Origin: an uncultured bacterium
GTDB lineage: Bacteria > Actinomycetota > Acidimicrobiia > Spongiisociales > ZC4RG35
NCBI GenBank assembly: GCA_963785075.1
Contig: CAWATW010000004.1
Span: 338,516-402,515, forward strand
Length of the DNA: 64,000 bases
Direction of reading: 5' to 3'
Shown: one piece after another, positions 151 through 63,699 of the stretch
Numbering within the stretch: the first letter of the stretch is position 1
How the letters are laid out: each line of letters begins with the position of its first letter
Program-made: the position numbers and the translations under genes
The notes under the pieces: model-generated
What the model was told of the DNA's origin: nothing
The model's database searches: none
The model's input: only the letters and a program-made list of their open reading frames with translations

Positions 151-194
151 CCGGCCACCCGCCTTGTGGCGGATCACGTCGAGCGTGCGTGGAC

Positions 195-222
195 CGTACG
201 ACGTAGGACGTTCAACGTCCCG
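195..222. repeat. 4 tandem heptamers CGTNNNA (cgtacga cgtagga cgttcaa cgtcccg) upstream of flgB
   Basis: Direct reading of the sequence; followed by ggacg. Confidence 0.5.
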
Positions 223-260
223 GACGACACCATCCGTCACGGCGCGCGATCGCAGCCACT

Positions 261-288
261 CGTTCTACGTTCGACGTTCTACCTTCTA
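261..288. repeat. 4 tandem heptamers CGTTCKA (cgttcta cgttcga cgttcta ccttcta) followed by cggaccc, upstream of flgB
   Basis: Direct reading of the sequence. Confidence 0.55.
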
Positions 289-482
289 CGGACCCCAGGC
301 GGCGAGCCAATCCCCTCCCCCCGTCGAACGCTTCGCGTGAAAAGCGTCCTCACCCTTAACCGCGGGCTTGGTCAGTCGACAGGCGTACTCGACAACCGAA
401 TACATGGAAGATTCAACGGCGACAGGGACGAGCGCACGGCGTTCGCCCCTGTCGTTTTCTCGTTTTGGAGGAGCCCAAGTCA

Positions 483-1528: not shown

Positions 1529-3055
1529 ATGGCGGCCACCGAAACCTTGAAGCGTCTCCTTCGGGACCTGACCGCCTCCCAGAAGTCCGTGATGGCGGCA
1601 GCAACCGTCGTCGTCCTGATCGCGTCGGCGGCGTTCTTCACCTGGGTGACGCAGCCTTCGTACACTGTTCTCTATTCGGGGATCGACGAGACCCAGCTCA
1701 GCCAGGTCGTGGACTCATTGGAGGCTGCGGGCGTGCCGTATCGGCTCGAAGGCGGTGGATCGAGGGTCCTCGTGCCGCAGGACTCGGTGTACCGGGTTCG
1801 AGCCGACCTCGCCGCCGACGGGATCCAGGCCTCGGTGGTCCCTCAGGGTTACGAACTGCTCGACGAGCAGGGGCTTTCGGTGTCGGACTTTCGCCAGCGC
1901 GTCGACTACCAACGAGCTCTCGAGGGTGAACTCGCCCGAACTCTCACAGCGATGGGGTCGGTCGACAGCTCGACAGTGCATCTGGTCATCCCCGAAGAGG
2001 CGCTCTTCGTGGAGAACCAAGAGCCGGTGACGGCTTCGGTGCTCGTCGATCCGAATGGTTCCCTCGCCGACTCGGACATCGAAGCGATCGTGATGCTTGT
2101 CGCATCCTCGGTCGAAGGCCTCGAACCCAGCCAGGTCACAGTCGCCTCGACCGATGGGGTCGTTCTCCATGCCGCCGGAGAGGACGGCGCCACTGCGCTC
2201 GGCAATCGCCAGCTCAGGCTGACGTCGGACTTCGAGACTGCACTCTCCACCGACATCAACGAGATGCTGGCATCGGTCCTCGGGGCTGGGCGCGCATCGG
2301 TCGTCGTCCGCGCCGAGCTCGACTTCGACGAGCGCTCGACCGAGAGCGAGACCTATTCCCCCGAGTCGGCGACCGCCCTCCGTAGCCAGGTGATCGAAGA
2401 GACCTTCACCGGAGCAGGCGCAGCGCCGGTCGGGTCGGTCGGTGTCGACGGCGCCGCCATCGACACCGGTGACGGGGCGTACGACTACTCCCGGAACGAG
2501 GACACCACCGAGTTCGGCATCGATCGAGTCGTGGTCAAGACCACCGAGGCGCCCGGAACGGTCGAACGTCTCTCGGTGGCCGTGGTCGTGGACGACGGCA
2601 GCCTCACCGGGGCGACCGCGCCCGACGTGACGGCGATCGAGTCCCTCGTCACGGCTGCGATCGGCGCACAACAGCAACGCGGCGATACGGTCGAGGTGTC
2701 GGCCGTGCCATTCCCCGCATTGCCCGAAGCAATCGAAGGAGCGCCCTTGGAAGAGGGCGGGATCATGACGTTGATCCCGACGATCATCGGCGCGCTCGTC
2801 CTCCTGCTCGTCACGGTGGCACTGTTCCTGATGAGCCGGGGCAGCAAGAAGAAGGCGAGGAAGGGCGAGATCATCGAGCTCGCGCAGGCATTGCCGGGTG
2901 GCGACGGATCCGCGATCGACGCCAACGACATGGCCAATCAGAACGCCGTTCTCGGCCTCACCGACGACGTGATCCAACTCGTGGAACGTCAGCCGGAGGA
3001 GATCGCCACCCTGCTCAGGTCTTGGCTCGCCGACCGCCGTGAGACGGTGGGCTGA
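1529..3055 (+). CDS. fliF: flagellar MS-ring protein FliF
   Basis: 508 aa with an N-terminal TM segment, a periplasmic ring region (..YRLEGGGSRVLVPQDSVYRVRADLA..), a C-terminal TM segment and a charged tail. Confidence 0.9.
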   Translation: MAATETLKRLLRDLTASQKSVMAAATVVVLIASAAFFTWVTQPSYTVLYSGIDETQLSQVVDSLEAAGVPYRLEGGGSRVLVPQDSVYRVRADLAADGIQASVVPQGYELLDEQGLSVSDFRQRVDYQRALEGELARTLTAMGSVDSSTVHLVIPEEALFVENQEPVTASVLVDPNGSLADSDIEAIVMLVASSVEGLEPSQVTVASTDGVVLHAAGEDGATALGNRQLRLTSDFETALSTDINEMLASVLGAGRASVVVRAELDFDERSTESETYSPESATALRSQVIEETFTGAGAAPVGSVGVDGAAIDTGDGAYDYSRNEDTTEFGIDRVVVKTTEAPGTVERLSVAVVVDDGSLTGATAPDVTAIESLVTAAIGAQQQRGDTVEVSAVPFPALPEAIEGAPLEEGGIMTLIPTIIGALVLLLVTVALFLMSRGSKKKARKGEIIELAQALPGGDGSAIDANDMANQNAVLGLTDDVIQLVERQPEEIATLLRSWLADRRETVG

Positions 3056-4083
3056 TGGCAAACGGCTCTGCGCTTCCTGTCCCGACCGGCCCCCGAGGGG
3101 TGGCCGTCCCCGCACCTCGCCAGCGAGCGGCGGCTCTCGTGCTGGCGATCGGGTCGGGCAAAGCAGCCAACATCCTCGAGCATCTCAGTCCCGACGAGAT
3201 AGCACTCCTCGCGGAGGAGGTCTCCAGCCTCGGCGACATCGACTCGGCGACGCGCAATTCGCTCATGGCGCGCACGCTCAACCACATGATGTCCATCGAT
3301 CCGAGCGAGGAGGCACGACTGCTGAGGATGCGTGCCGATGCCATGAGGGCTGCGGCAGAGCTGGATGAGCTCGGACACTTCGACCCGCACCAGCCCTTTC
3401 GATTCCTCCAGAAGGTGGAGCTCGACCAGGCGGTTCAGTTCCTCGCCAACGAGCACCCTCAGACCGCCGCCGTGATCCTCGCAGCGCAGCCGCCTACCTT
3501 CGCAGCCAAGGTGTTGTCCCACTTCGATCCGACCGAGGCAGGCGACATCTCGCTTCGCATCGCCACCATCGGCAAGACGCCGACCGAGGTCATCCAACGG
3601 ATCGAGCAGGCGATGCGAAAGAACCTCAGCGAAAGCAACGAAGGCGAGGGCGAAACGCGAGACGGACCAAAGGAGCTGGCCGCAATCCTCAACAACGCAG
3701 ATCGCGACATAGAGGAGAAGGTGCTCGCCCATCTCACCTCGTTCGACCAGGAACTCGCCGAACGAGTTCGATCGCTCATGTTCGTCTTCGAGGATGTTCA
3801 GACGCTCGAAGACCGGGCCATCCAGCAGGTACTGCAACAGGTGAACACGAACTCGCTGGCACTTGCCCTGAAAGGCGTCGACGAGGCCGTACGCGACAAG
3901 ATCCTCAACAACCTGTCGGAGCGGGCACGCGAGTCGCTCCTGGAGGAATTCGATCTCCTCGGCGCCGTCCGCAAACAGGACGTCATGGAGGCTCGGACCG
4001 CAATCGTCGCCACCATCCGCTCGCTCGAGGCGAGCGGCCAGATCGTGATCGCAAGAGGAGACGACAGTGAGTTCATCGAATAG
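3055..4083 (+). CDS. fliG: flagellar motor switch protein FliG
   Basis: 342 aa, ..AALVLAIGSGKAANILEHLSPDEIALLAEEV.. and a FliG C-terminal domain. ATG overlaps the fliF TGA. Confidence 0.9.
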   Translation: MANGSALPVPTGPRGVAVPAPRQRAAALVLAIGSGKAANILEHLSPDEIALLAEEVSSLGDIDSATRNSLMARTLNHMMSIDPSEEARLLRMRADAMRAAAELDELGHFDPHQPFRFLQKVELDQAVQFLANEHPQTAAVILAAQPPTFAAKVLSHFDPTEAGDISLRIATIGKTPTEVIQRIEQAMRKNLSESNEGEGETRDGPKELAAILNNADRDIEEKVLAHLTSFDQELAERVRSLMFVFEDVQTLEDRAIQQVLQQVNTNSLALALKGVDEAVRDKILNNLSERARESLLEEFDLLGAVRKQDVMEARTAIVATIRSLEASGQIVIARGDDSEFIE

Positions 4084-4651
4084 CGGTGTCCTTCGTCAGC
4101 CGTTCCTGGCGACCGATCCGCATGTCATGGGGAACGCACACGCCGGGTTCCTCGATCCGACGTTCCTCGAGCACATCGATGAAGCGCGTAGCTCTGGATA
4201 CGACCAGGGCTTCGCAGATGGAGCGAAGGCGGCCGAGGCCGCGGCTCGCCGGTCCGCCGAGGCGGCGGCTCAACGGCTCAGGACTGCCGCCACCGACGCC
4301 GTCGCCCACCTCGCATCCGCGACCGTCGACTTGGTCCCGCAACTGCTCGACGTGGCGATTGCGATCGCACGCAACATCGTCGCCGAGGTGCCGGAGCAGG
4401 TCAGTGCCTCTCTCGGCGATCGGATCGCCGTGGCGCTCTCCCAGATCGACGATGACCGACTGACGATTTCCGTCTCGCCGGGAGATCTCGGCGAGGTGTC
4501 CGCCGGATTCGGGTCGGTTCCCGGACTTACCGTCGTACCCGACGAGGCGCTCGGAGCCGGCGAAGCTCGCATCGACGGTGTCTGGGCCCACGCCGATCTG
4601 ACCATTCCGATGGCGTGGGCCATCGTGGAGGAGAACCTCCGTGGCCGATGA
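4067..4651 (+). CDS. fliH: flagellar export/assembly protein FliH
   Basis: GTG start 7 nt after an AAGAGGAG RBS. FliH-like Ala/Glu-rich coiled region. Sits between fliG and fliI. Confidence 0.7.
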   Translation: MSSSNSGVLRQPFLATDPHVMGNAHAGFLDPTFLEHIDEARSSGYDQGFADGAKAAEAAARRSAEAAAQRLRTAATDAVAHLASATVDLVPQLLDVAIAIARNIVAEVPEQVSASLGDRIAVALSQIDDDRLTISVSPGDLGEVSAGFGSVPGLTVVPDEALGAGEARIDGVWAHADLTIPMAWAIVEENLRGR

Positions 4652-5933
4652 GCTCCGCAGCCTGCCGCTTCTCGTCCAAGGGTCCCTCGCGCGGGTCGTC
4701 GGGCACGAGCTGGAGGTACGCGGGCTCCGACTCCGACTGGGAGACGCTCTGGAAGTGACGGGCGTCGACGGATCCAGGCTGGCCGAGGTCGTCGCCGTCG
4801 AGCCGGAAGGCGCCACCGCCCTGGTATACGGCGACACCACGGGTTTGGGTCGCGGCGACCGCGTCACACGCCTCGACAGCGTGCCGGGTGCGGTCGTCGG
4901 ACCGGCACTCGTGGGAAGGGTCGTGGATGCACTGGGGCAGCCGATGGACGGGAAGGGACCGATTCTCGGCGAAGCCGTCAGGCTCGACTCCAACACCCCG
5001 GCCGCCATGGAGCGGCGTCGCATCGACACTCCGATCACCACCGGTGTGCGCCTCATCGACACCCTCTGCACCATCGGGAAGGGCCAGAGGGTCGGCATCT
5101 TCGGCGGATCGGGGGTCGGCAAGTCCACCCTGCTGGGAATGCTCGCGAAGGGGCAGCAAGCCGACGTCGCGGTGATCGGGCTCATCGGTGAGCGCGGCCG
5201 CGAAGTTCGTGAGTTCATCGAAGACGAACTCGGTCCCGAAGGAATGGCCCGGTCGATCGTCATCGTCGCAACGTCGGATCAACCGGCCCTGCTCCGACTC
5301 CGAGCCGCCCTCTACGCGACCCGGGCGGCGGAGTGGTTCGCCGATCGCGGAAACGACGTTGTGCTGATGATGGACTCGATCACCCGTCTCGCAATGGCCC
5401 AGCGCGAGGTCGGCCTCGCTGCGGGCGAGCCTCCGACCGCACGTGGCTACACCCCCTCCGTGTTCTCCATGCTGCCGAAGATCCTCGAGCGGTCGGGACC
5501 GCGGGTCCATGGCACCATCACGGCCCTCTACACCGTGCTCGTCGACGGCGACGACATGAACGATCCCGTGGCAGATGCCGTTCGAGGAATCCTCGACGGA
5601 CACCTGGTTCTGGACCGCAACCTCGCGGTTCAGGGTCGATATCCCGCCATCGATCCCCTCGCTTCGCTCAGTCGTCTCGCCCAGAAACTGTGGAACGAGC
5701 GCCAGGCACGGGTGGCTTCCGCCACACGCGATGCGCTCGCTGCCGCGACCGAGGTCCAGGAATTGGTCGAAGTCGGCGCGTACGTGTCGGGATCGAACCC
5801 TCGGGCGGACAAGGGCCTACGGGTCGCGCCGCAGCTCGTGGAGTTTCTCAGACAGCGGCCGTCCGACCTGACACCGGCGGAGAGGTCATGGCAGGCGCTG
5901 TCAGAGATCTGCACGAGAGGTGAGCTCATATGA
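4641..5933 (+). CDS. fliI: flagellum-specific ATP synthase FliI
   Basis: Walker A GGSGVGKSTLLGM, Walker B VVLMMDSITRLA, F1/T3SS ATPase fold. Confidence 0.92.
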   Translation: MADELRSLPLLVQGSLARVVGHELEVRGLRLRLGDALEVTGVDGSRLAEVVAVEPEGATALVYGDTTGLGRGDRVTRLDSVPGAVVGPALVGRVVDALGQPMDGKGPILGEAVRLDSNTPAAMERRRIDTPITTGVRLIDTLCTIGKGQRVGIFGGSGVGKSTLLGMLAKGQQADVAVIGLIGERGREVREFIEDELGPEGMARSIVIVATSDQPALLRLRAALYATRAAEWFADRGNDVVLMMDSITRLAMAQREVGLAAGEPPTARGYTPSVFSMLPKILERSGPRVHGTITALYTVLVDGDDMNDPVADAVRGILDGHLVLDRNLAVQGRYPAIDPLASLSRLAQKLWNERQARVASATRDALAAATEVQELVEVGAYVSGSNPRADKGLRVAPQLVEFLRQRPSDLTPAERSWQALSEICTRGELI

Positions 5934-8802: not shown

Positions 8803-10029
8803 ATGATGCGCTCGATGTTCGCCGGGATCTCCGGCCTCCGTTCGCACCAGACGATGATGGACGTCGTCGGTAACAACATCGCCAACGTGAACACCGCCGG
8901 GTACAAGGCCTCGGTCGTCACCTTTCAAGAAGCCTTGACCCAGACGCTGCAGGGCCCGTCGGCCGGCGGCGCCAACCAGGGCGGCTCCAACCCGATCACA
9001 ATCGGGCTCGGCACCAAGGTCGCCACCATCGACGGCGTGTTCACACAGGGTGCGAGTCAGGTGACGGGCCGCAACACGGACCTAGCGATTCAGGGCGATG
9101 GATTCTTCGTGATGGAGAACGCGGGCTCTCGCTTCTACACGCGAGCCGGCAACTTCAGCTTCGATTCCGCGGGCAACTTGACCGGACCGGGGGGAGCCCG
9201 GGTGATGGGATGGACCGCGGACACAACCGGCGCCATCGATTTCTCACGACCGCTCTCGGCGATCCAGCTCCCGCTCACGCAGGTGATCGATCCCATCGTG
9301 ACGACCAGTGTGTCGCTCGGCGGGAACCTGCCGGCCGATGCTGCCGTGGGTAACACCCAGGTCACGACCATCAGTGTGTACGACTCGGTCGGGAACTCCC
9401 ACGAAATGGTGGCGACCTTCACGAAGACCGGAACCAACACGTGGTCGGTGTCCGCCGCGGTCGACGGAGCCGCTGCGACTCTGTCGAGCAGCACTGTGAC
9501 GTTCGATACGAGCGGAGCGCTGACCTCTGCAAGCCCGATCACGTTGACCGGCGTCACACCCGCCGGAGCAGCTCCACTGAACATCGACATCGACCTCTCG
9601 ACCGACACGCCGCTCGTGCAGTTCGGAGGTTCGCCCACGATGGCCGCCTTCTCCCAGAACGGCAACGAAATCGGCTTCATGCGGAGCTTCGTGATCAGCG
9701 ACGACGGCACCATCGTGGGCCAGTTCTCCAACGGCTGGACCAAGACGCTCGGCACGGTCGCCACTGCGACGTTCACGAACCCGGCAGGCTTGATGCGCAG
9801 CGGCGAATCGCGTTTCCAGGAGAGCATCAACTCCGGCCAGCCGATCGTCGGGACGCCCGGCTCCGGAAACCGGGGTCTGCTGTCGGCCGGCACGCTCGAG
9901 ATGTCGAACGTCGATCTCGCCGCCGAATTCACGAACATGATCATCGCCCAGCGTGGTTTCCAGGCGAACAGCCGTGTGATCACCGCCGCCGACGAAATCC
10001 TGTCGGACCTGGTCAATCTGAAGCGTTGA
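8803..10029 (+). CDS. flgE: flagellar hook protein FlgE
   Basis: MMRSMFAGISGLRSHQTMMDVVGNNIANVNTAGYK.. and C-term ..LEMSNVDLAAEFTNMIIAQRGFQANSRVITAADEIL.. AAGGAGGA RBS. Confidence 0.9.
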   Translation: MMRSMFAGISGLRSHQTMMDVVGNNIANVNTAGYKASVVTFQEALTQTLQGPSAGGANQGGSNPITIGLGTKVATIDGVFTQGASQVTGRNTDLAIQGDGFFVMENAGSRFYTRAGNFSFDSAGNLTGPGGARVMGWTADTTGAIDFSRPLSAIQLPLTQVIDPIVTTSVSLGGNLPADAAVGNTQVTTISVYDSVGNSHEMVATFTKTGTNTWSVSAAVDGAAATLSSSTVTFDTSGALTSASPITLTGVTPAGAAPLNIDIDLSTDTPLVQFGGSPTMAAFSQNGNEIGFMRSFVISDDGTIVGQFSNGWTKTLGTVATATFTNPAGLMRSGESRFQESINSGQPIVGTPGSGNRGLLSAGTLEMSNVDLAAEFTNMIIAQRGFQANSRVITAADEILSDLVNLKR

Positions 10030-10037
10030 TGCATGAC

Positions 10038-10066
10038 GGTCCTCGGGCCCACAGGGCCCGAGGACC
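10038..10066 (+). terminator. perfect 13-bp stem/3-nt loop hairpin immediately after the flgE stop
   Basis: ggtcctcgggccc-aca-gggcccgaggacc. No U-tract, which is usual for high-GC genomes. Confidence 0.45.
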
Positions 10067-10067
10067 G

Positions 10068-10088
10068 GCGAGGAGCGAGGAGCGAGGA
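10068..10088. repeat. (GCGAGGA)x3 tandem heptamers directly 3' of the hairpin
   Basis: gcgagga gcgagga gcgagga. Confidence 0.5.
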
Positions 10089-10371
10089 GCCAGACCCCCG
10101 CCCCTTCCTCGTCGACACCCTTCCCCATCGGCACAGAAGGGGTCGCCCACCCGTCTCAGCACTCACACCGTGGCCCGAAAGGCGGTTTGGCTCCTCGCAG
10201 CGAGCGAAGCGAGCGGCCTCGCCCCTGGCTTTTCGCACTCCAGCCAATGTCCTTACGCGGCTCTAGGACGCGCCGACGGGATCTTTGCAGGGTCGATGGA
10301 CGACCCCGACAGACACACGGAGGTGTCGAAGTGCCTACGCGCACCAGGACAAACAAGAGTGGGGGCTCCCG

Positions 10372-35106: not shown

Positions 35107-35180
35107 CCCCCGGACGGGTTTTCGCGCACAAAAGGTGCGCTATTCACGCATTTCGTGCGCGAAAACACGATCCCGTCTCC
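35107..35180. repeat. copy 1 of a ~70-bp hairpin-containing direct repeat (17-bp arm gacgggttttcgcgcac ... gtgcgcgaaaac[acgat]cccgtc)
   Basis: About 97% identical to 36575-36643. The right arm is interrupted by a 5-nt insertion. Inner palindrome gcgcac-aaaag-gtgcgc. Confidence 0.7.
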
Positions 35181-35193
35181 TGCTGATACCGTG

Positions 35194-35207
35194 GTACTAC
35201 GTAGTAC
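35194..35207. promoter_or_regulatory. perfect 14-bp palindrome GTACTACGTAGTAC 42 bp upstream of padR, nested in the ccgtggt..accacgg inverted repeat; candidate PadR operator
   Basis: Directly read. PadR-family proteins autoregulate through palindromic operators. Confidence 0.4.
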
Positions 35208-35248
35208 GTATTACACTCCAGACCACGGTAGACAACCCGGGAGGAGAG

Positions 35249-35572
35249 ATGGATACGACCCAGGTACTCAAAGGGGTGCTGGACACCGCCGTGCTTGCAG
35301 TTCTGGCGAAGGCGAGCACATATGGCTACGACCTCGTCCGCCAGCTGCGTGAAGCGGGGCTCGAGGATGTTGGGGATGCATCCGTCTACGGGACGCTGCG
35401 ACGACTCTTCTCAGGTGGCTACCTGACGTCCGAGATCGTTCCCTCGGACGAGGGGCCTGCCCGCAAGTACTACGGCATCAACGCCGCCGGCCGCGACCTG
35501 CTCGCTCGCTCGACCAAGACGTGGAACCACCTGTCGAGTGTGATGAACGATCTGTTGGAGGAAGTCGCATGA
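35249..35572 (+). CDS. PadR-family transcriptional regulator
   Basis: ..LKGVLDTAVLAVLAKASTYGYDLVRQLREAGL..DASVYGTLRRLFSGGYLTSEIVPSDEGPARKYYGINAAGRDLL.. is the winged-HTH PadR signature. GGGAGGAG RBS. Confidence 0.85.
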   Translation: MDTTQVLKGVLDTAVLAVLAKASTYGYDLVRQLREAGLEDVGDASVYGTLRRLFSGGYLTSEIVPSDEGPARKYYGINAAGRDLLARSTKTWNHLSSVMNDLLEEVA

Positions 35573-36574
35573 GCACTACCACTCTCTTCCCCGCCGCCGT
35601 CGCATTCCTCGATCAGGTTCGCGAGCTGCTCGGCGACCTCACCGACGAGGACCGCGAGGAGGTGATCCAGGACCTCGAGGCGCACCTTGAGGATCTCGGC
35701 GTCACCAGCATCGAGCAGTCACTCGGCACCGCGGAGGCCTTCGTCGACGAGTTCCGCGCCAGCGCTGGGTTGTCCGCCGACAGCACCAAGCCTCGGGGAA
35801 GGGTGTCGACGCTCGTCGATGGGGTCGTAGATCGATGGATGGCAAGCTGGGAGCATCCTGTGATTGCGCAGCTGAACAAATTGACCGAGCCATTGAGGCC
35901 GGCATGGCCCTGGATCAGGGCGTGGCTCGCGCTGATGCTCGTCGCCTTCGGCACAGCGTGGGACGGAGTCGTGTTCCGGCGATTCCCCATTCCGAGTGTG
36001 AATGGGAGCGCGGTGACCGGTCTCGCGGCACTGGCGCTGGTCACCTGGATCTCGGTCACCGCCCAGCGCCGAGGACACCGGACTCGTCGCTTGACCGGCG
36101 GCATCCTCAATCTCGCCGCTGCGATCGCAATCCTGATCGGGGTGTTCGCACCATATGCCTTGATGACGTCGTGGGCGGCAAACAGCTACCAGCATCAGGA
36201 CACCGTTACCGCCTACGGAGGACTGGTCGGACCGTACGGCGACATCTCGAACATCCACGCATACGACCGTGACGGAAACCCGGTGGAAGTGTTGCTCTAC
36301 GACCAGGACGGCAACCCGCTGAGCAGTGTCCCAGGACGTGTACTTCATCGACGTCGGACAGATGGGCGACTCGTGGGGCGCCGTCAGATTCGGCACCGAC
36401 GCCTACGGCCAGCCGATCACCAACCTCTTTCCGCTCGAACGATTGGGCGAGATCTGGACCAACGGGACGGTGAGCTACGACGAGTTGCCTCCTCCGCGCG
36501 TCGCCCTGCCAGATCTCGGGGTACAAAGGGCCAATACGGTTCCGTCGACGATCGTCATCCCACCCGTCGACTGA
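35569..36574 (+). CDS. PadR-associated membrane protein (DUF1700-like N-terminus), apparently interrupted by a +1 frameshift near 36320-36330
   Basis: ATG overlaps the padR stop. Frame 1 reads plausibly up to ..LLYDQDGNPLSSVP. Frame 2 then reads plausibly (..DVYFIDVGQMGDSWGAVRFGTDAYGQPITNLFPLERLGEIW..) as far as the TGA at 36572-74. Confidence 0.45.
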
Positions 36575-36643
36575 CCCCCGGACGGGTTTTCGCGCACAAA
36601 AGGTGCGCTATTCACGCACTTTGTGCGCGAAAACCCGTCTCTG
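36575..36643. repeat. copy 2 of the ~70-bp repeat with an intact perfect 17-bp inverted repeat gacgggttttcgcgcac-N25-gtgcgcgaaaacccgtc, between convergent stops
   Basis: Directly read. Lies exactly between the + gene stop (36574) and the folK-fusion stop (36646). Confidence 0.7.
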
Positions 36644-44410: not shown

Positions 44411-44650
44411 TCAGGCGTCGCGGTGATCCGACAGGTGCGCCCGCAGCCGTTCCAGCATCTCAGGGGGCACCTCTTCTCGGAGCTTGGTCCTCACCACCAC
44501 GCGCAGTCGCTCTTCGAAGACGAAGGCACCGCCGCACGGCGGGCAGTCGTCGAGATGGAACCGGATCCGCTCCGCCACCTGCTCGTCATCGAGTTCGTGA
44601 TCGAGATACGTGTAGAGGTTGGCGAGGGCCTCATCACAATGGTCAGACAT
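44411..44650 (-). CDS. zinc-binding anti-sigma factor (ZAS family, RsrA/RshA-like)
   Basis: ..[37 protein letters not shown].. gives the H-x3-C-x2-C ZAS motif. Overlaps the 3' end of the ECF sigma gene. Confidence 0.8.
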
Positions 44651-45290
44651 CGGTCACCTCATCGGGGAGCAGGCCGCGTTCTCTTGCGAACTCCCACAAC
44701 GCTCGCTGGAGCGCTTTTCTTCCCCGATGGAGCCGCGACATCACGGTTCCGATCGGGATGTCCAAGATCTCGGCGATCTCCTTGTACGCAAAACCTTCGA
44801 GGTCGGCCAACAGGACCGGGATTCGGAAGTTCTCGGGCAGCGCCTCGACGGCCCGTTTGATGTCGCTCTCGACCAACCCGTCGAGCACCTGGTCTTCGAC
44901 GCTGCGGGCCGCCTCGGCCGACTGCTCGGATCCGAGGCGCCGATAGAGATACAGATCTTCGACCTCACCGAGATCGGTCTCGGTGGGACGACGCGTGTCC
45001 CGTCGGTACTTGTTGATGTAGGTGTTGGTCAGGATGCGATAGAGCCATGCCTTCAGGTTCGTGCCCGCCTCGAACGTGTTGTATGCCCGATAGGCCTTGA
45101 GGTACGTCTCCTGGACGAGGTCCTCGGCATCTGCCGGATTACGAGTCATCCGCATGGCCGCGCTGAACAGCTGCGGTGCATATTCCATCGCATCTCGTTC
45201 GAAGTCGGCCTGGTCTGCCACGGCCGAAACGGTAGCAAGCCCGACATGGCACCAAACCTGGACACTTGGCGCCGGGGGCGCGGGCGCCAT
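44643..45290 (-). CDS. sigH: ECF sigma factor, SigH/SigR-like
   Basis: ..[67 protein letters not shown].. is near-identical in pattern to mycobacterial SigH. Start uncertain (ATG 45290, or downstream in-frame GTGs near 45245/45230). Confidence 0.85.
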
Positions 45291-45299
45291 CGTGGCACC

Positions 45300-45327
45300 A
45301 GGTCCGGAGTCCGAGGTCCGACGTCCG
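45300..45327 (-). repeat. 4 tandem heptamers (reading the - strand: cggacgt cggacct cggactc cggacct) immediately upstream of the sigH ATG at 45290
   Basis: Directly read. Same unit family as the array at 63644-63671. Confidence 0.55.
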
Positions 45328-45419
45328 TCCCGGACCGCCCGCCTGTGCGGCGCCAAGAAGCTCTGGACCGCGGGTTGAGAGGGGTCGGGCGGCGCCCGCT
45401 CATGACCGAATACTGGCTA

Positions 45420-45431
45420 CTGAGTGCTCAG
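45420..45431. promoter_or_regulatory. near-palindrome ctgagtgctcag 20 bp from the tRNA-Thr 3' end
   Basis: Related to the perfect palindrome at 45594-45605. Confidence 0.3.
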
Positions 45432-45452
45432 CGCTGCCGGACGAAGTCCGGC

Positions 45453-45527
45453 TGGAGCCGAGGGGGGGATTTGAACCCCCGACCTACGCATTACGAGTGC
45501 GTTGCTCTACCCCTGAGCTACCCCGGC
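45453..45527 (-). tRNA. tRNA-Thr (anticodon CGU)
   Basis: Reverse complement GCCGGGGTAGCTCAGGGGTAGAGCAACGCACTCGTAATGCGTAGGTCGGGGGTTCAAATCCCCCCCTCGGCTCCA. 7-bp acceptor stem (one G-U pair), D/anticodon/T arms, GTTCAAATC T-loop, genomically encoded CCA. Confidence 0.85.
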
Positions 45528-45589
45528 AGTCGGCCCGCAAGGTTAGTGGGTCCCGACGCCTCGGGAACCAAGGTGTGGTACTCCGCACC

Positions 45590-45605
45590 AGTACTGAGTA
45601 CTCAG
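45590..45605. promoter_or_regulatory. agtactgagtactcag containing the perfect 12-bp palindrome CTGAGTACTCAG, upstream (sense side) of tRNA-Thr
   Basis: Directly read. The 12-mer GTACTGAGTACT recurs at 63479-63490. Confidence 0.35.
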
Positions 45606-45623
45606 CACCAAGTCCTGAGCGTT

Positions 45624-45641
45624 GAAGCGCTCTAGCGCTTC
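45624..45641. terminator. perfect 18-bp palindrome gaagcgctctagcgcttc overlapping the holB stop codon
   Basis: Directly read. Confidence 0.3.
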
Positions 45642-46686
45642 ACGCGTTGGCCAGGTCAGCGAACAGGTCGGCCAGCAGGAGCTGGGGGCGGAGATTGGCC
45701 TCGAGGTCGATGACCGCACCCATGACGCGCTCGGCGCGTTCCACCGCGAGCCGGGGCGTGACCGTGGTGAGCGTGGCCACGGGGATGTCCCGGTTGCGCA
45801 TCGGACCTCCGAGCTGCACTGCCGCTGCGTCCAGGTACCACGATGCGATCAGCTCCAGCCCTGTCGAGAGCAACGACTGGCGGGCCCGGCGTCGAGCCCG
45901 CTCGGTCTCCTCCTTCGAGAGATCGGCGCCGACGCCTTCGAGCAACGGGTCGACCGACTCGATCATTTCGGCGGCAAGCCGAAACGCCTCGCCGGGACGG
46001 GCCGATGCCCGCAGCGGCACCGACAACCATGCCCTTCTGAACCCCGAGATCTCAGGGCTGGCCAGCACTGAGAAGGCCAGCCCCGGCCGGCCTCCGGCGA
46101 GCCCGGCCAGAACCTCGGCATGGGTCCCGTCGACGCCACGTTCGGTGAGCGCGGCCGTGAGCACGTGGTCGGCCACTCGCCCGAAGTGGACGGTGCGGCA
46201 ACGGCTCGCGACCGTCGACGGCAGCTGGTCCTCGAACTCGACGACGAGGATGAACACGGTGCTGACGGTCGGCTCTTCGAGCGTCTTCAGCAGGGCGTTC
46301 GCCGCCTGATCGGTCATCGAGCCCGCATCCTCGATCAAGAACACCTTCCGCGCCGCCTCGACAGGGCTCATCGAAGCCTGATGGATCGTGGCACGCGCCT
46401 GATCGACTCCGAGACTCTGGCGGCCTTCGGGCGCCACCAGGATGATGTCCGGATGGGCGCCGGAGAGCACCCGTCGACACGATCGACACTCGTCCTCGTG
46501 CACTCCGCCATCGGGACACAGCAACATCGCCGCAAAACGTCGTGCAACAACGGCCTTGCCCACACCTGCCGCCCCCGTGAAGAGGTAGGCGTTTGCGGGT
46601 GCCGGAGCCTCTCTCACCAGCAACTCCAGAACTCGCTCGTGACCGACGACGTCCCCAAACAGCTTCAACTGCGCAGACTCGATCAT
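45640..46686 (-). CDS. holB: DNA polymerase III subunit delta'
   Basis: ..AYLFTGAAGVGKAVVARRFAAMLLCPDGGVHEDECRSCRRVLSGAHPDI.. shows AAA+ clamp-loader motifs and a zinc module. Start at MIESAQ (46686). The ORF-track extension to 47103 is a shadow of tmk. Confidence 0.8.
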   Translation of the reverse strand: MIESAQLKLFGDVVGHERVLELLVREAPAPANAYLFTGAAGVGKAVVARRFAAMLLCPDGGVHEDECRSCRRVLSGAHPDIILVAPEGRQSLGVDQARATIHQASMSPVEAARKVFLIEDAGSMTDQAANALLKTLEEPTVSTVFILVVEFEDQLPSTVASRCRTVHFGRVADHVLTAALTERGVDGTHAEVLAGLAGGRPGLAFSVLASPEISGFRRAWLSVPLRASARPGEAFRLAAEMIESVDPLLEGVGADLSKEETERARRRARQSLLSTGLELIASWYLDAAAVQLGGPMRNRDIPVATLTTVTPRLAVERAERVMGAVIDLEANLRPQLLLADLFADLANA

Positions 46687-52971: not shown

Positions 52972-52992
52972 GCTCGGCGCATGCGTGTCGAG

Positions 52993-53027
52993 TAATACGT
53001 AATACGTAATACGTAATACGTAATACG
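52993..53027. repeat. (TAATACG)x5 perfect tandem heptamer array in the topA / protease intergenic region
   Basis: Directly read. AT-rich island in a roughly 70% GC background, flanked by cgcatgcg and gtggcg..cgccac palindromes. Confidence 0.8.
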
Positions 53028-53142
53028 TGTGGCGGTTCGCTGTGCGCCACGCACGCATCTCACGGTCTGACGCTCAAGTTTTGACGCCGTCGGGGCCGAT
53101 GCACTTCCCAGAGGTACTCGTCTCACAAAAGGTGCACTTGAC

Positions 53143-54855
53143 GTGTTCGGGGGAATGCGACTGACCGATCGGAGCCGAAGCCGGAGCCGGCTCGCACCGA
53201 TCGTGGCGATCATCGGAATGCTCATCGCGGTGGTTCCCGCCTCGGCACCGCGGGTTGAAACGATGCATCAGGTGATCGTGCGTGCCGACTCTGCGATGCT
53301 CGATGTCGTCCGTCGCAACGTGGAGTCGCTGGGCGGCGTCATCGTCCGCGACCTTTCGATCATCAACGGTTTCGCAGCACGAGTGCCGGCGGGACTCGAT
53401 GCCGCATCGTTGCCCGGAGTCACCGAGGTGACCACCGACGGTCGCATCGAGCTGTCCTCGTCTCGAGCCGGGGGCGGGTACACGTCGATGCGGACCCTGA
53501 CCGACCGCGTGCTCGATGTCGATCGGCTCTGGGCGCGAGGGATCACGGGTGCCGGCGTGGGTGTCGCCCTGATCGACACGGGTGTGACGCCTGTGGGCGG
53601 GCTCGACGGAGACGGAAAGATCGTGAACGGTCCCGACCTGTCCTTCGACGCCGAATTCGAGAACCTCAGGTGGCTCGACATGTACGGGCACGGAACCCAC
53701 CTGGCGGGCATCATCGCGGGCGAGGACCCTCAGTTCTCACCACGCAGCAGCCGCCGCAACGTGTTCGCCGGGGTGGCACCTGAGGCCCAGATCGTCAACG
53801 TCAAAGTGGCAGACGCCACCGGGACCGCCGACGTCTCGCAGGTCATAGCCGGAATCCAGTGGGTTGTGGACCACAAGGACGACGGTCCGGTCGACATCAG
53901 GGTGTTGACGCTGGCGTTCGGAACCGATGGCACGCAGGCCTACACACTCGATCCGCTCGCTCACGCCGCCGAAGTGGCGTGGCACGAGGGCATCGTGGTC
54001 GTTGTCGCCGCCGGCAACGACGCTGCCGCACGGCCACTCCGCAACCCGGCCACGGACCCCTACGTGATCGCGGTGGGAGCGCTGGACCCCGCCAACAGCT
54101 CGAAGGTGTCGGATGATCGGCTGTTGGCGTTCTCGAACTGCGGCACCGCCGAACGCTCCGTGGATGTTCTTGCGCCGGGTAGATCCATCGCCAGTCTCCG
54201 AGTCGGAGGCTCCTTCATCGACGATCAGTACCCGGAGGCACGCACAGGTCGCCGGTACTTCCGGGGCACAGGAACGTCACAGGCCGCGGCGGTCGTGTCT
54301 GGAGCAGCAGCATTGTTGATCGACCAACGGCCCGATCTGACTCCAGATCAGGTCAAGGAGTTGCTGACCGAATCGGCACGCACCGTTGCGAGCGCCGGCG
54401 GAGCCTGCGCGCAAGCCGGATCTCTCGACGTTCGCCGAGCGTCGGCGAGTCCCACGCCCACCGTGGCTCAGGACTTCGACCGGTCTGACGGATCGGGATC
54501 ATTGGAGGCCGCTCGAGGGTCGTACCACGTGTCACACGACGGCATCGTTCTCGAAGGCGAGATCGACGTCACTGGAGGCACCTGGAGCGGAGGCACCTGG
54601 TCCGGAGGCACCTGGTCAGGAGGCACCTGGTCCGGAGGCACCTGGCGGAGGCCCTCAGGAGGCACCTGGTCCGGAGGCACCTGGAGCGGAGGCACCTGGT
54701 CCGGAGGCACCTGGTCCGGAGGCACCTGGTCCGGAGGCACCTGGAGCGGAGGCACCTGGTCCGGAGGCACCTGGTCCGGAGGCACCTGGAGCGGAGGCAC
54801 GTGGTCCGGAGGCACCTGGTCAGGGAGCACCTGGTCGGGTGCCCGATGGCGGTGA
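53143..54855 (+). CDS. secreted subtilisin-like serine protease (S8) with a C-terminal array of about 18 GGTWS pentapeptide repeats
   Basis: Signal peptide, catalytic triad contexts ..GVGVALIDTGV.. (Asp), ..HGTHLAGIIAG.. (His), ..GTGTSQAAAVVSGAAALL.. (Ser). C-term TGGTWSGGTWSGGTWS..WRRPSGGTWS(x12)..GSTWSGARWR. Confidence 0.85.
   Translation: MFGGMRLTDRSRSRSRLAPIVAIIGMLIAVVPASAPRVETMHQVIVRADSAMLDVVRRNVESLGGVIVRDLSIINGFAARVPAGLDAASLPGVTEVTTDGRIELSSSRAGGGYTSMRTLTDRVLDVDRLWARGITGAGVGVALIDTGVTPVGGLDGDGKIVNGPDLSFDAEFENLRWLDMYGHGTHLAGIIAGEDPQFSPRSSRRNVFAGVAPEAQIVNVKVADATGTADVSQVIAGIQWVVDHKDDGPVDIRVLTLAFGTDGTQAYTLDPLAHAAEVAWHEGIVVVVAAGNDAAARPLRNPATDPYVIAVGALDPANSSKVSDDRLLAFSNCGTAERSVDVLAPGRSIASLRVGGSFIDDQYPEARTGRRYFRGTGTSQAAAVVSGAAALLIDQRPDLTPDQVKELLTESARTVASAGGACAQAGSLDVRRASASPTPTVAQDFDRSDGSGSLEAARGSYHVSHDGIVLEGEIDVTGGTWSGGTWSGGTWSGGTWSGGTWRRPSGGTWSGGTWSGGTWSGGTWSGGTWSGGTWSGGTWSGGTWSGGTWSGGTWSGGTWSGSTWSGARWR
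54574..54837 (+). repeat. about 17.6 tandem copies of a 15-bp unit ggaggcacctggwsc encoding GGTWS, in two blocks (5 + 12) separated by a variant unit
   Basis: Directly read. The long antisense ORF 54468-56204 (PDQVPP repeats) is its shadow. Confidence 0.9.
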
Positions 54856-63400: not shown

Positions 63401-63478
63401 GAGGGCCTGAGGATATGACCTTTGCGAGCGTGCGCAGCTCAAACTCACCGGGCGGCGGAGTTACCGGTACCGAGTCTC

Positions 63479-63493
63479 GTACTGAGTACTGAG
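63479..63493. promoter_or_regulatory. gtactgagtactgag motif (shares the 12-mer GTACTGAGTACT with 45591-45602)
   Basis: Directly read. Confidence 0.3.
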
Positions 63494-63643
63494 ATCCGGA
63501 CCGGAGCGGAGAAGCCGGGGCTCATTCGGCCCCGGTCCCGAGCAACAATCCTGCCGTCCGACGCCGCGTCCGACGTCCGGACCACCCCACCCACGGTCCG
63601 TCCAACGCCTGCCGCCCGACCCCGGGTCCGACGTCCGCACGCG

Positions 63644-63671
63644 TCGGACCTCGGACCTCGGACTTCGGACC
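63644..63671 (+). repeat. 4 tandem heptamers tcggacc tcggacc tcggact tcggacc, preceded by a 9-bp-stem inverted repeat ggtccgacg-N8-cgtcggacc
   Basis: Directly read. The whole 63540-63675 region is built from GTCCGAC/GTCGGAC units in both orientations. Confidence 0.6.
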
Positions 63672-63699
63672 CGAGACGATGCCTTTCGCTACCAGATTG

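Follow-up and report, generated by a model that had tools for sequence, protein, structure and literature searches.

What are the short repeats that surround the tRNA-Thr gene between holB and a sigH-type extracytoplasmic function (ECF) sigma factor gene in an uncultured bacterium of the Acidimicrobiia? In a 64,000-nt stretch of contig CAWATW010000004.1 (positions 338,516 to 402,515; hereafter, the window), an array of CGGACNT heptamers lies upstream of sigH, GTAC-centered palindromes flank the tRNA, and an earlier note, made from the letters of the window, had suggested a composite repeat element, a common regulator site, or the scars of an integration. We found that the tRNA transcription unit is inverted relative to the closest relatives and that a 7-nt periodicity marks both the array and the palindromic tracts. 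Our preferred explanation, which we regard as likely, is that the motifs are heptanucleotide simple sequence repeats (SSRs) of a known kind, at various stages of decay, and that a micro-inversion of the tRNA unit accounts for the rearrangement. The source genome, a high-GC, Acidimicrobiia-like metagenome-assembled genome (MAG), is sampled here by the 64-kb window, to which all motif and array counts refer.

The local gene order on the minus strand is tmk, holB, tRNA-Thr(CGT), the sigH-type gene, and the gene of a zf-HC2 anti-sigma factor:

45642–45640, minus strand: stop codon of holB (DNA_pol3_delta2), adjoining the tRNA-Thr spacer
45453–45527, minus strand: tRNA-Thr, anticodon CGT (ARAGORN; Rfam tRNA, 71.8 bits)
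44643–45221, minus strand: sigH-type ECF sigma factor gene, 192 aa, with a GTG start at 45221–45219
44411–44650, minus strand: zf-HC2 anti-sigma factor gene (Pfam zf-HC2), 3′ of sigH
45300–45327, minus strand: (CGGACNT)×4 array [Tandem Repeats Finder (TRF), period 7, 4.0 copies], without counterpart in relatives

The window was compared with related loci by blastn and MAFFT; all genomes compared were MAGs. The sister set consisted of three loci (L001, L002, and L003) from two sister genomes, reached via SigH homologues; these are Microflora Danica-type long-read MAGs with ∼90% nucleotide identity to the window and a SigH 99% identical to its own. SigH homologues at 83–85% identity were labelled Acidimicrobiia. 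Over ∼31 kb (33170–63999), the window is collinear with the sister genomes, and noncoding differences larger than ∼20 nt are confined to five patches:

45260–45648: rearranged spacer, from the last holB codons to the sigH core promoter; collinear homology breaks off at 45648 and is regained at 45259
52984–53008: copy-number change of (GTAATAC)n after the topA stop
63461–63511: window-specific 51-nt insertion carrying GTACTGAGTACTGAG
63556–63568: 18 extra nt in L003 beside the first GTCCGAN array
35146–36618: 1.47-kb insertion in the window, absent from L001 and L002

The earlier note had proposed comparing relatives for indels at the tRNA, and this proved productive: the locus is rearranged. 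The spacer measures 389 nt in the window vs. ∼186 nt in L002, and the tRNA with its 5′ flank (45455–45579) aligned by blastn plus/plus to relatives when both of its flanks aligned plus/minus. By ARAGORN, tRNA-Thr(CGT) and sigH are on opposite strands in L001, L002, L091, L092/93, L005, L006/07, L008–10, and L011, eight lineages in which the tRNA lies 70–180 nt upstream of the sigH start and SigH is 99–81% identical over 126 aa. The tRNA is thus divergent from sigH in the closest relatives and co-directional with holB and sigH in the window. In a neighbor-joining tree, the window falls inside the clade with the opposite-strand tRNA, and its tRNA orientation is therefore derived. A same-strand tRNA was also present in L063, where SigH identity is 86%, and in two distant lineages, L029 and L034. 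The group has thus seen more than one flip of the unit. In L029 (112–190), the co-oriented tRNA-Thr ends ∼3 nt before the sigH ATG, and sigH there may be cotranscribed with, or processed from, the tRNA transcript.

The flipped block extends from the hairpin GCCGGACTTCGTCCGGC (45452–45436) through ∼45579 and contains −35 and −10 elements, tRNA-Thr(CGT), and the 3′ hairpin:

45528–45579, minus strand: tRNA 5′ flank, with a −10-like TAACCT (45540–45545) and a −35-like GGTTCC (45564–45569)
45436–45452, minus strand: hairpin GCCGGAC-TTC-GTCCGGC directly 3′ of the tRNA, terminator-like, without a U tract

The position of TANNNT in the 5′ flank is conserved across 7 lineages, and an equivalent hairpin (CCGGACTTTCGGTCCGG) follows the tRNA in L002. 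Judging by this conservation, TAACCT and GGTTCC are putative promoter elements of the tRNA, and because the −10/−35-like elements keep their position inside the block in these lineages, the block appears to be a complete transcription unit. A scan of 45100–45750 for the sigma-70 promoter and intrinsic-terminator consensus gave no match, and the tRNA-Thr was the only Rfam match in the whole window.

On the sigH side, collinearity begins again at AGGTTTGGTGCC, immediately before the sigH core promoter, and a copy of the same ∼12 nt (AAGGTGTGGTAC; duplicated motif AGGT[T/G]TGGT) ends the flipped block, indicating a short duplication at the breakpoint. Both junctions contain filler sequence. On the holB side, 58 nt replace the last holB codons and supply a new stop; on the sigH side, the filler amounts to ∼180 nt. 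No decayed copy of the original tRNA was found in this new 180-nt segment. The repeats are placed as follows:

45420–45431: near-palindrome CTGAGTGCTCAG, on the sigH side of tRNA-Thr
45594–45605: perfect palindrome CTGAGTACTCAG, on the holB side of tRNA-Thr
45400–45436, unstranded: degenerate heptamer tract containing CTGAGTGCTCAG, at the sigH-side edge of the inverted unit (self-identity 0.57 at lag 7 and 0.48 at lag 14)
45576–45622, unstranded: degenerate heptamer tract containing CTGAGTACTCAG, at the holB-side edge (0.45 at lag 7 and 0.42 at lag 14)
45265–45357: inverted repeat around the CGGACNT array, with arms 45265–45286 and 45336–45357 (repeat search; closing stem in DNA folds)
45623–45642: inverted repeat TGAAGCGCT-CT-AGCGCTTCA, two 9-nt arms with a nonpalindromic CT between them, overlapping the holB stop codon

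The perfect and near-perfect palindromes flanking the tRNA are thus as the earlier note had described them. Both lie within the fillers at the edges of the block, and the two copies make up a repeat of 15 nt, 14 of them matching, in the same orientation and 174 nt apart (one copy at 45592–45606). Over the holB stop, the structure reported as an 18-bp perfect palindrome is actually of the form 9+2+9; it is window specific and gave a stable hairpin in both RNA and DNA folds. The CGGACNT array lies further in, within a segment of 93 nt that a perfect inverted repeat of 10 bp (CTTGGCGCCG/CGGCGCCAAG) closes; the exact 10-mer occurs at only these two sites of the window. By eye, the array might derive from the old tRNA 5′ flank (GGGTCCGGACGCCTCGG), but a comparison of the new segment with the ancestral spacer gave nothing significant beyond TGGTGCCACG.

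Read in sevens, the palindromic tracts and the array resemble each other. On the minus strand, 45327–45300 is CGGACGT CGGACCT CGGACTC CGGACCT; on the plus strand, 45590–45624 phases as AGTACTG AGTACTC AGCACCA AGTCCTG AGCGTTG, and 45412–45439 phases as ACTGGCT ACTGAGT GCTCAGC GCTGCCG. Both the palindromic tracts and the arrays have self-identity maxima at lags 7 and 14 (0.60 and 0.57 for the CGGACNT array) over a background of ∼0.2–0.3, and the periodicity runs beyond the palindromes themselves. TRF assigned the tract at 45576–45622, which is absent from relatives, a period of 20–21. AGTACT is self-complementary, and adjacent AGTACTG and AGTACTC units therefore spell CTGAGTACTCAG.

Such arrays are in excess in the window. 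We counted six arrays of period 7 with 3 or more copies, where 0.43 were expected and 60 dinucleotide shuffles gave 2 at most, and no arrays of period 5, 8, 10, or 11. All six lie outside credible coding frames, several of them directly after stop codons: arrays follow the stops of topA, hppA, and the gene ending at 10029 and, in relatives, also that of holB. Open reading frames (ORFs) overlapping the arrays had no coding-type signature in GC content at third codon positions except as antisense shadows.

The orthologous holB–tRNA–sigH spacers of relatives carry heptamer arrays of other sequence. L001 and L002 have (TACGTAA)n after the holB stop; L005 and L006 have (CTGGCTG)n (13 copies), (ACGCAAC)n, and (AACGCAG)n; L091 has (GGAAGCC)n and (GGCTTTC)n; and L012 has (ATCTGTC)n upstream of sigH. 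The 7-nt periodicity is kept and the sequence is not, which argues for a mutational process over a sequence-specific binding site. Copy number and unit sequence vary between close relatives, and each unit family was seen at 2–3 loci, with GTAATAC at 35193, at 52992, and, in the phase TACGTAA, 3′ of holB in L001/L002 and GCGAGGA at 10068 and in L092. In L091, inverted heptamer arrays (68–90 and 375–397; 23 nt, 87% complementary) flank the tRNA unit, the configuration expected to permit a flip.

These observations can be joined into a single account. Arrays of 7-nt units would accumulate in the unconstrained DNA between the end of a gene and the next core promoter, arising most likely by replication slippage and template switching, and their unit sequence and copy number would turn over between sister species. 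The CGGACNT array would be one such slippage array. The CTGAGTRCTCAG palindromes would be a by-product of AGTACT(G/C) units, which are nearly self-reverse-complementary, two neighbors giving a 12-nt palindrome. From an ancestral arrangement holB → ← tRNA sigH →, the self-contained unit (∼45436–45579) has flipped, probably with inverted-copy arrays as the substrate; the quasi-palindromic GTAC tracts sit exactly at both edges of the block, and both core promoters appear to have survived.

The relation of the array to sigH depends on where the gene starts. The array itself is present, with 9 nt separating its last unit from the in-frame ATG at 45290–45288. Among the best 120 SigH homologues, however, most are 192 aa long with the N terminus (M/V)ADQ, and the conserved 192-aa protein starts at the GTG at 45221. 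Two features mark this region:

45288–45290, minus strand: first in-frame ATG, where the public 215-aa protein P0001 is annotated to start; not conserved, in window-specific sequence
45229–45237, minus strand: extended −10-like TGCTACCGT, 7 nt upstream of the sigH GTG

P0001 is the exact translation of the window ORF from the ATG at 45290. A 238-aa model from a sister genome, P0003, has a different extension, an antisense translation of the tRNA gene, and the N-terminal extensions of P0001–P0003 are mutually unrelated. Because those of P0001 and P0003 differ from each other and the latter runs antisense to the tRNA, we regard them as annotation artifacts. In the alignment, TA.C.T is invariant in 9 lineages, mostly as TGCTA(C/G)CGT, 7–9 nt before a GTG or ATG. 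In leaderless genes of actinobacteria, an extended −10 is followed by a transcript that opens with the start codon, and the sigH mRNA is probably likewise leaderless, its transcription start being placed by conservation of the element. The 240 nt that precede sigH contain no SigH/SigR-type promoter (GGAAY-N15–19-(C/G)GTT), either in the window or in 11 relatives.

Of the two options that the earlier note had offered for sigH, the downstream start is thus the one that stands, and the array abuts only the first in-frame ATG, not the conserved start. It lies 79–106 nt upstream of the GTG, in sequence absent from the sister species. With the start at 45221 after a conserved −10, the array is outside the coding sequence and likely outside any leader; being upstream of the sigH promoter, it would affect expression only secondarily. 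The hairpins of the new segment may insulate sigH from tRNA read-through, both genes now being co-directional. An insulator structure of the segment as a whole is unsupported beyond the individual hairpins, its folding being no better than that of shuffled sequences (z = −0.9).

Streptomyces coelicolor sigR has two promoters and an N-terminally extended isoform, sigma-R′. The window gene resembles it as an orthologous-type redox-stress ECF sigma factor paired with a zinc anti-sigma factor, which raises the possibility of a real upstream in-frame start. However, the extension in the window is not conserved in 99%-identical relatives, where the equivalent ORF crosses the antisense tRNA, and no GGAAY-N16–19-GTT promoter was found upstream of sigH. 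An extended isoform of the sigR′ type was accordingly set aside: there is no conserved upstream start, and most of the best 120 homologues are 192 aa long. Public SigH models of 215–240 aa in this genus therefore carry spurious N-terminal extensions, one of them reading through an antisense tRNA.

The same two families of motif meet again 18 kb away. GTACTGAGTACT recurs at 63479–63490, beside CGGACNT/GTCCGAN arrays at 63555–63579 (TRF, 3.9 copies), 63626–63637, and 63644–63671 (4.0 copies):

63550–63675, unstranded: GTCCGAN/TCGGACN arrays downstream of the stop (63700) of the H+-pyrophosphatase gene hppA, largely conserved in L003

This joint recurrence near 63.5 kb, already pointed out in the earlier note, goes beyond chance. 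At up to 2 mismatches, GTACTGAGTACT had 6 matches vs. 0.73 expected, a number reached in none of 100 shuffles; GTACNNNGTAC had 2 matches vs. 0.05 expected; and all exact matches to CGGACNTCGGAC are confined to the tRNA locus and the 63.5-kb locus. The bare 12-mer CTGAGTRCTCAG at up to 2 mismatches was not significant on its own (12 matches vs. 7.6 expected; 8 of 100 shuffles). Inverted arms at 63623–63637 and 63659–63673 form a hairpin (fold, −41.9 kcal/mol; z = −2.8). By alignment with L003 and by folding, the 51-nt insertion at 63461–63511 is an imperfect hairpin centered on GTACTGAGTAC (63479–63489), and GCGGAG flanks it (63455–63460 and 63506–63511). L003 lacks the insertion and shares the start region of the phosphatase gene, in which TATCCT precedes the ATG by 9 nt. 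We also observed a 58-nt tandem duplication within 63550–63665, with 33-nt cores 88% identical and a first copy that is partly different in L003.

The TCGGACN arrays are kept in L003, and the GTAC piece is window specific, so the components of the 63.5-kb locus are of unequal age; moreover, the minus-strand order of the GTAC piece and the CGGACNT array is opposite at the two loci. Unequal age and reversed order argue against a composite element moving as a unit, as the earlier note had suggested.

Several observations weigh against explaining the locus by heptamer turnover and a micro-inversion. GTACTGA-like and CGGACNT-like families stand together at two loci 18 kb apart, and the GTAC pieces are recent and window specific at both. 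Independent slippage explains such sharing of unit families poorly, which makes copying between loci or mobility possible. The insertion at 63461–63511, hairpin shaped and bounded by 6-nt direct repeats, resembles a small mobile element. The new segment (45260–45440) has no significant homology to the ancestral spacer beyond TGGTGCCACG, we infer the role of the arrays in the inversion from position only, and the abundance of arrays is estimated from 64 kb of the genome. Finally, the window and its relatives are all long-read MAG assemblies, and L001 carries frameshifts. In L001 (ERZ25039603 contig_23858, 2535–5112 and 9240–9893), genes including topA and holB are broken up, a pattern suggestive of long-read indel errors left uncorrected; fine-scale differences in that locus call for caution.

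Some of these points would fit a mobile palindromic element of 40–50 nt centered on GTACTSAGTAC, similar to repetitive extragenic palindromic (REP) sequences or miniature inverted-repeat transposable elements (MITEs), that inserted at 63461–63511 and on both sides of the tRNA and promoted the inversion. For each of the three GTAC sites, the sequence around it is window specific; at 63.5 kb, the copy forms a separate 51-nt insertion, hairpin shaped and bordered by GCGGAG direct repeats; the tRNA copies match at 14 of 15 nt; and a G(A)GTACC follows the core at nearly equal distance at both 45605 and 63493. We nevertheless consider such an element unlikely, since the similarity between copies is not convincing beyond a 12- to 15-nt core, no more copies occur in the 64 kb at up to 2 mismatches, and 327 kb of related loci yielded only an ordinary (GGTACTT)n array in L014. 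No transposase or REP-associated tyrosine transposase (RAYT) gene was seen nearby; as a candidate MITE end, the 10-bp terminal repeat CTTGGCGCCG had no further exact copies in the window; a 6-nt flanking repeat is weak evidence in GC-rich DNA; and 7-nt periodicity outside the palindromes is what decayed arrays would show. In a broader form, and with a similarly low probability in our estimate, the quasi-palindromic GTAC tracts would be recombinogenic sites or the ends of a tiny mobile hairpin element that flips the whole tRNA unit repeatedly. If so, tRNA-Thr(CGT) is repeatedly reoriented in the holB–sigH spacer, changing how a strong tRNA promoter faces the sigma factor gene. A related second reading is that the clade may have dispersed heptamer families like the short tandemly repeated repetitive (STRR) sequences, spreading between loci by some mechanism.

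The remaining explanations assign the palindromes a dedicated function or origin. As the operator of a lineage-specific transcription factor, CTGAGTRCTCAG/GTACTGAGTAC would control tRNA-Thr, sigH, and the histidine phosphatase gene downstream of hppA; the site is a palindrome richer in AT than the sequence around it, it clusters significantly at two intergenic loci, and all three copies are on the same strand, upstream of a minus-strand gene. Yet the GTAC motifs are missing from the spacers of L001–L003 despite a 99% identical SigH and conserved core promoters, and the phosphatase start region with its TATCCT persists in L003 without the site. Their placement is also inconsistent, one upstream of the tRNA promoter, one downstream of the tRNA hairpin, and one ∼80 nt upstream of the phosphatase start; apart from the copy behind the hairpin, they stand at least 50 nt upstream of a −10. 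We therefore think a common regulator site, as the earlier note had it, improbable. A programmed invertible switch, in which a site-specific recombinase acts on the 12-mers and couples tRNA transcription to sigH, would be in keeping with palindromic 12-mers at both edges of a self-contained flipped unit and with an orientation that varies (same-strand in the window, L063, L029, and L034 and opposite elsewhere). It seems very improbable: neither a recombinase nor an invertase family figures in the Pfam list for 20 kb of neighbors in a collinear relative; the palindromes are missing from relatives of the opposite orientation, so that the sites are not a conserved switch; and no flanking repeats were found in L063, the other same-strand case inside the clade. 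The ∼200 extra nt and the altered holB C terminus that accompanied the flip mark it as a one-off rearrangement. tRNA genes often serve as integration sites, and the rearrangement that sets the locus apart from its relatives could reflect attL/attR-type scars of an integrative element attached at tRNA-Thr. However, the window holds a single tRNA 3′ end and no duplicated 3′ segment, collinearity with relatives reaches the spacer from both flanks, with no inserted island, the repeats do not overlap the tRNA, and no integrase family occurs among the genes in 20 kb of neighbors in the collinear relative. The single 3′ end and the collinear flanks effectively refute an integration scar, to which we give the lowest probability of all.

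Heptamer SSRs with this behavior have been described elsewhere. In the work of Mrazek (2007), as cited in PMC4679880 and PMC4692102, heptamers are over-represented among bacterial SSRs, notably in large high-GC genomes including those of Actinobacteria, and polymerase slippage is the proposed cause. The arrays in the window agree with these long SSRs (LSSRs) in being tandem 7-nt units of at least 3 copies, over-represented vs. other nontriplet periods, and noncoding; they differ in that several unit families coexist in the clade and replace one another within a single orthologous spacer. We found no paper describing heptamer LSSRs in Acidimicrobiia. The heptamers of Xanthomonas (GGGAATC) and Nostoc [GGGGA(T/C)T] lie mostly between genes, often at 0–50 bp from a stop codon; some form inverted pairs, and close relatives differ in their length and sequence at a kept location (PMC4692102). 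The window arrays share with them the intergenic, near-stop placement, the inverted pairing, and the variability. Those units are, however, G rich and form G-quadruplexes, whereas the window units (CGGACNT, AGTACTS, GTAATAC, and GCGAGGA) have no G runs.

Dispersal of like units has precedents as well. TAACTGA of Beggiatoaceae and the cyanobacterial STRR heptamers occur at many loci, with the mechanism of spreading unknown (PMC4679880; Calothrix repeats via PMC4692102). Like them, the window clade has a small repertoire of units at unrelated intergenic loci, and GTACTGA is two positions from TAACTGA. In one genome, TAACTGA covers the ribosome-binding region immediately 5′ of start codons at 169 loci (PMC4679880), whereas each window unit is found at 2–3 loci in 64 kb, after stops or upstream of promoters. 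REP sequences, bacterial interspersed mosaic elements (BIMEs), and MITEs are also similar as short extragenic hairpins near gene ends, one window copy being a discrete insertion with a direct repeat; in contrast to them, no family of near-identical copies, conserved ends, or associated transposase gene was found in the 64 kb or in the 327 kb of relatives.

For motif scans of high-GC uncultured Actinomycetota, the consequence is that AT-richer spacer palindromes and short arrays can be by-products of heptamer turnover rather than operators, which advises caution in motif-based regulon prediction. If our explanation is true, the unexplained preference for heptamers in bacterial repeats extends to another phylum-level lineage. 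Should inverted arrays and the tRNA flip prove linked genome wide, there would be a concrete mechanism for micro-inversions driven by simple repeats. Whether inverted heptamer tracts drive flips and how like units reach different loci are worth following.

Heptamer arrays are frequent throughout the clade, and those in the rest of the window and its relatives vary in form. Many units of the window genome fit GTNNNAC, so tandem copies put ACGT or GTAC every 7 nt. A perfect (GTAATAC)×5.3 lies at 52992–53028, separated from the topA stop by 20 nt and preceding an S8 peptidase gene, and the orthologous site 3′ of topA in L002 and L003 holds a shorter, degenerate GTAATAC version. At 10030–10215, a strong hairpin after the stop at 10029 is followed by (GCGAGGA)×3.3 and, ∼100 nt later, by an inverted partner that begins GGCTCCTCGC; the GCGAGGA array with 6 nt of its flank (GCGAGGAGCGAGGAGCCAGAC) also stands after holB in L092 (718–750), a nonorthologous locus in another species. 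Near the left end of the window (190–290), degenerate heptamers (GTACGAC GTAGGAC GTTCAAC GTCC and so on) precede (CGTTCTA)×4.3. Among the relatives, the holB–tRNA spacer is expanded to 350–650 nt in L005 (3640–3850), L006 (3290–3850), and L092 (776–1270) by higher-order repeats of ∼105–205 nt that combine heptamer arrays with G/C-rich hairpins such as GGGGGGTCGTCCCCCC; that of L092 also has 43-nt palindromes. L091, a 94%-identical relative, carries (CGTCATG)×11.7 and (CTGGAGA)×3.1 downstream of the anti-sigma factor gene (1291–1372).

The 1.47-kb insertion at 35146–36618 brought a gene for a PadR-family regulator (35250–35572) and an adjacent one for a HAAS-domain membrane protein. Its site is a long palindromic terminator, of which a copy now stands on either side of the insertion (35110–35169 and 36578–36640). 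Approximately 40 nt upstream of the padR start, 35193–35213 reads GTACTAC GTAGTAC GTATTAC, a three-unit tract of the GTAATAC family, and its first 14 nt form the perfect palindrome GTACTACGTAGTAC; the tract could be a PadR operator or merely another heptamer array. The S8 peptidase gene downstream of topA contains a 15-nt coding repeat (54574–54836, 17.9 copies) that encodes GGTWS repeats at the C terminus of the protein, and its copy number differs in L001 and L002.

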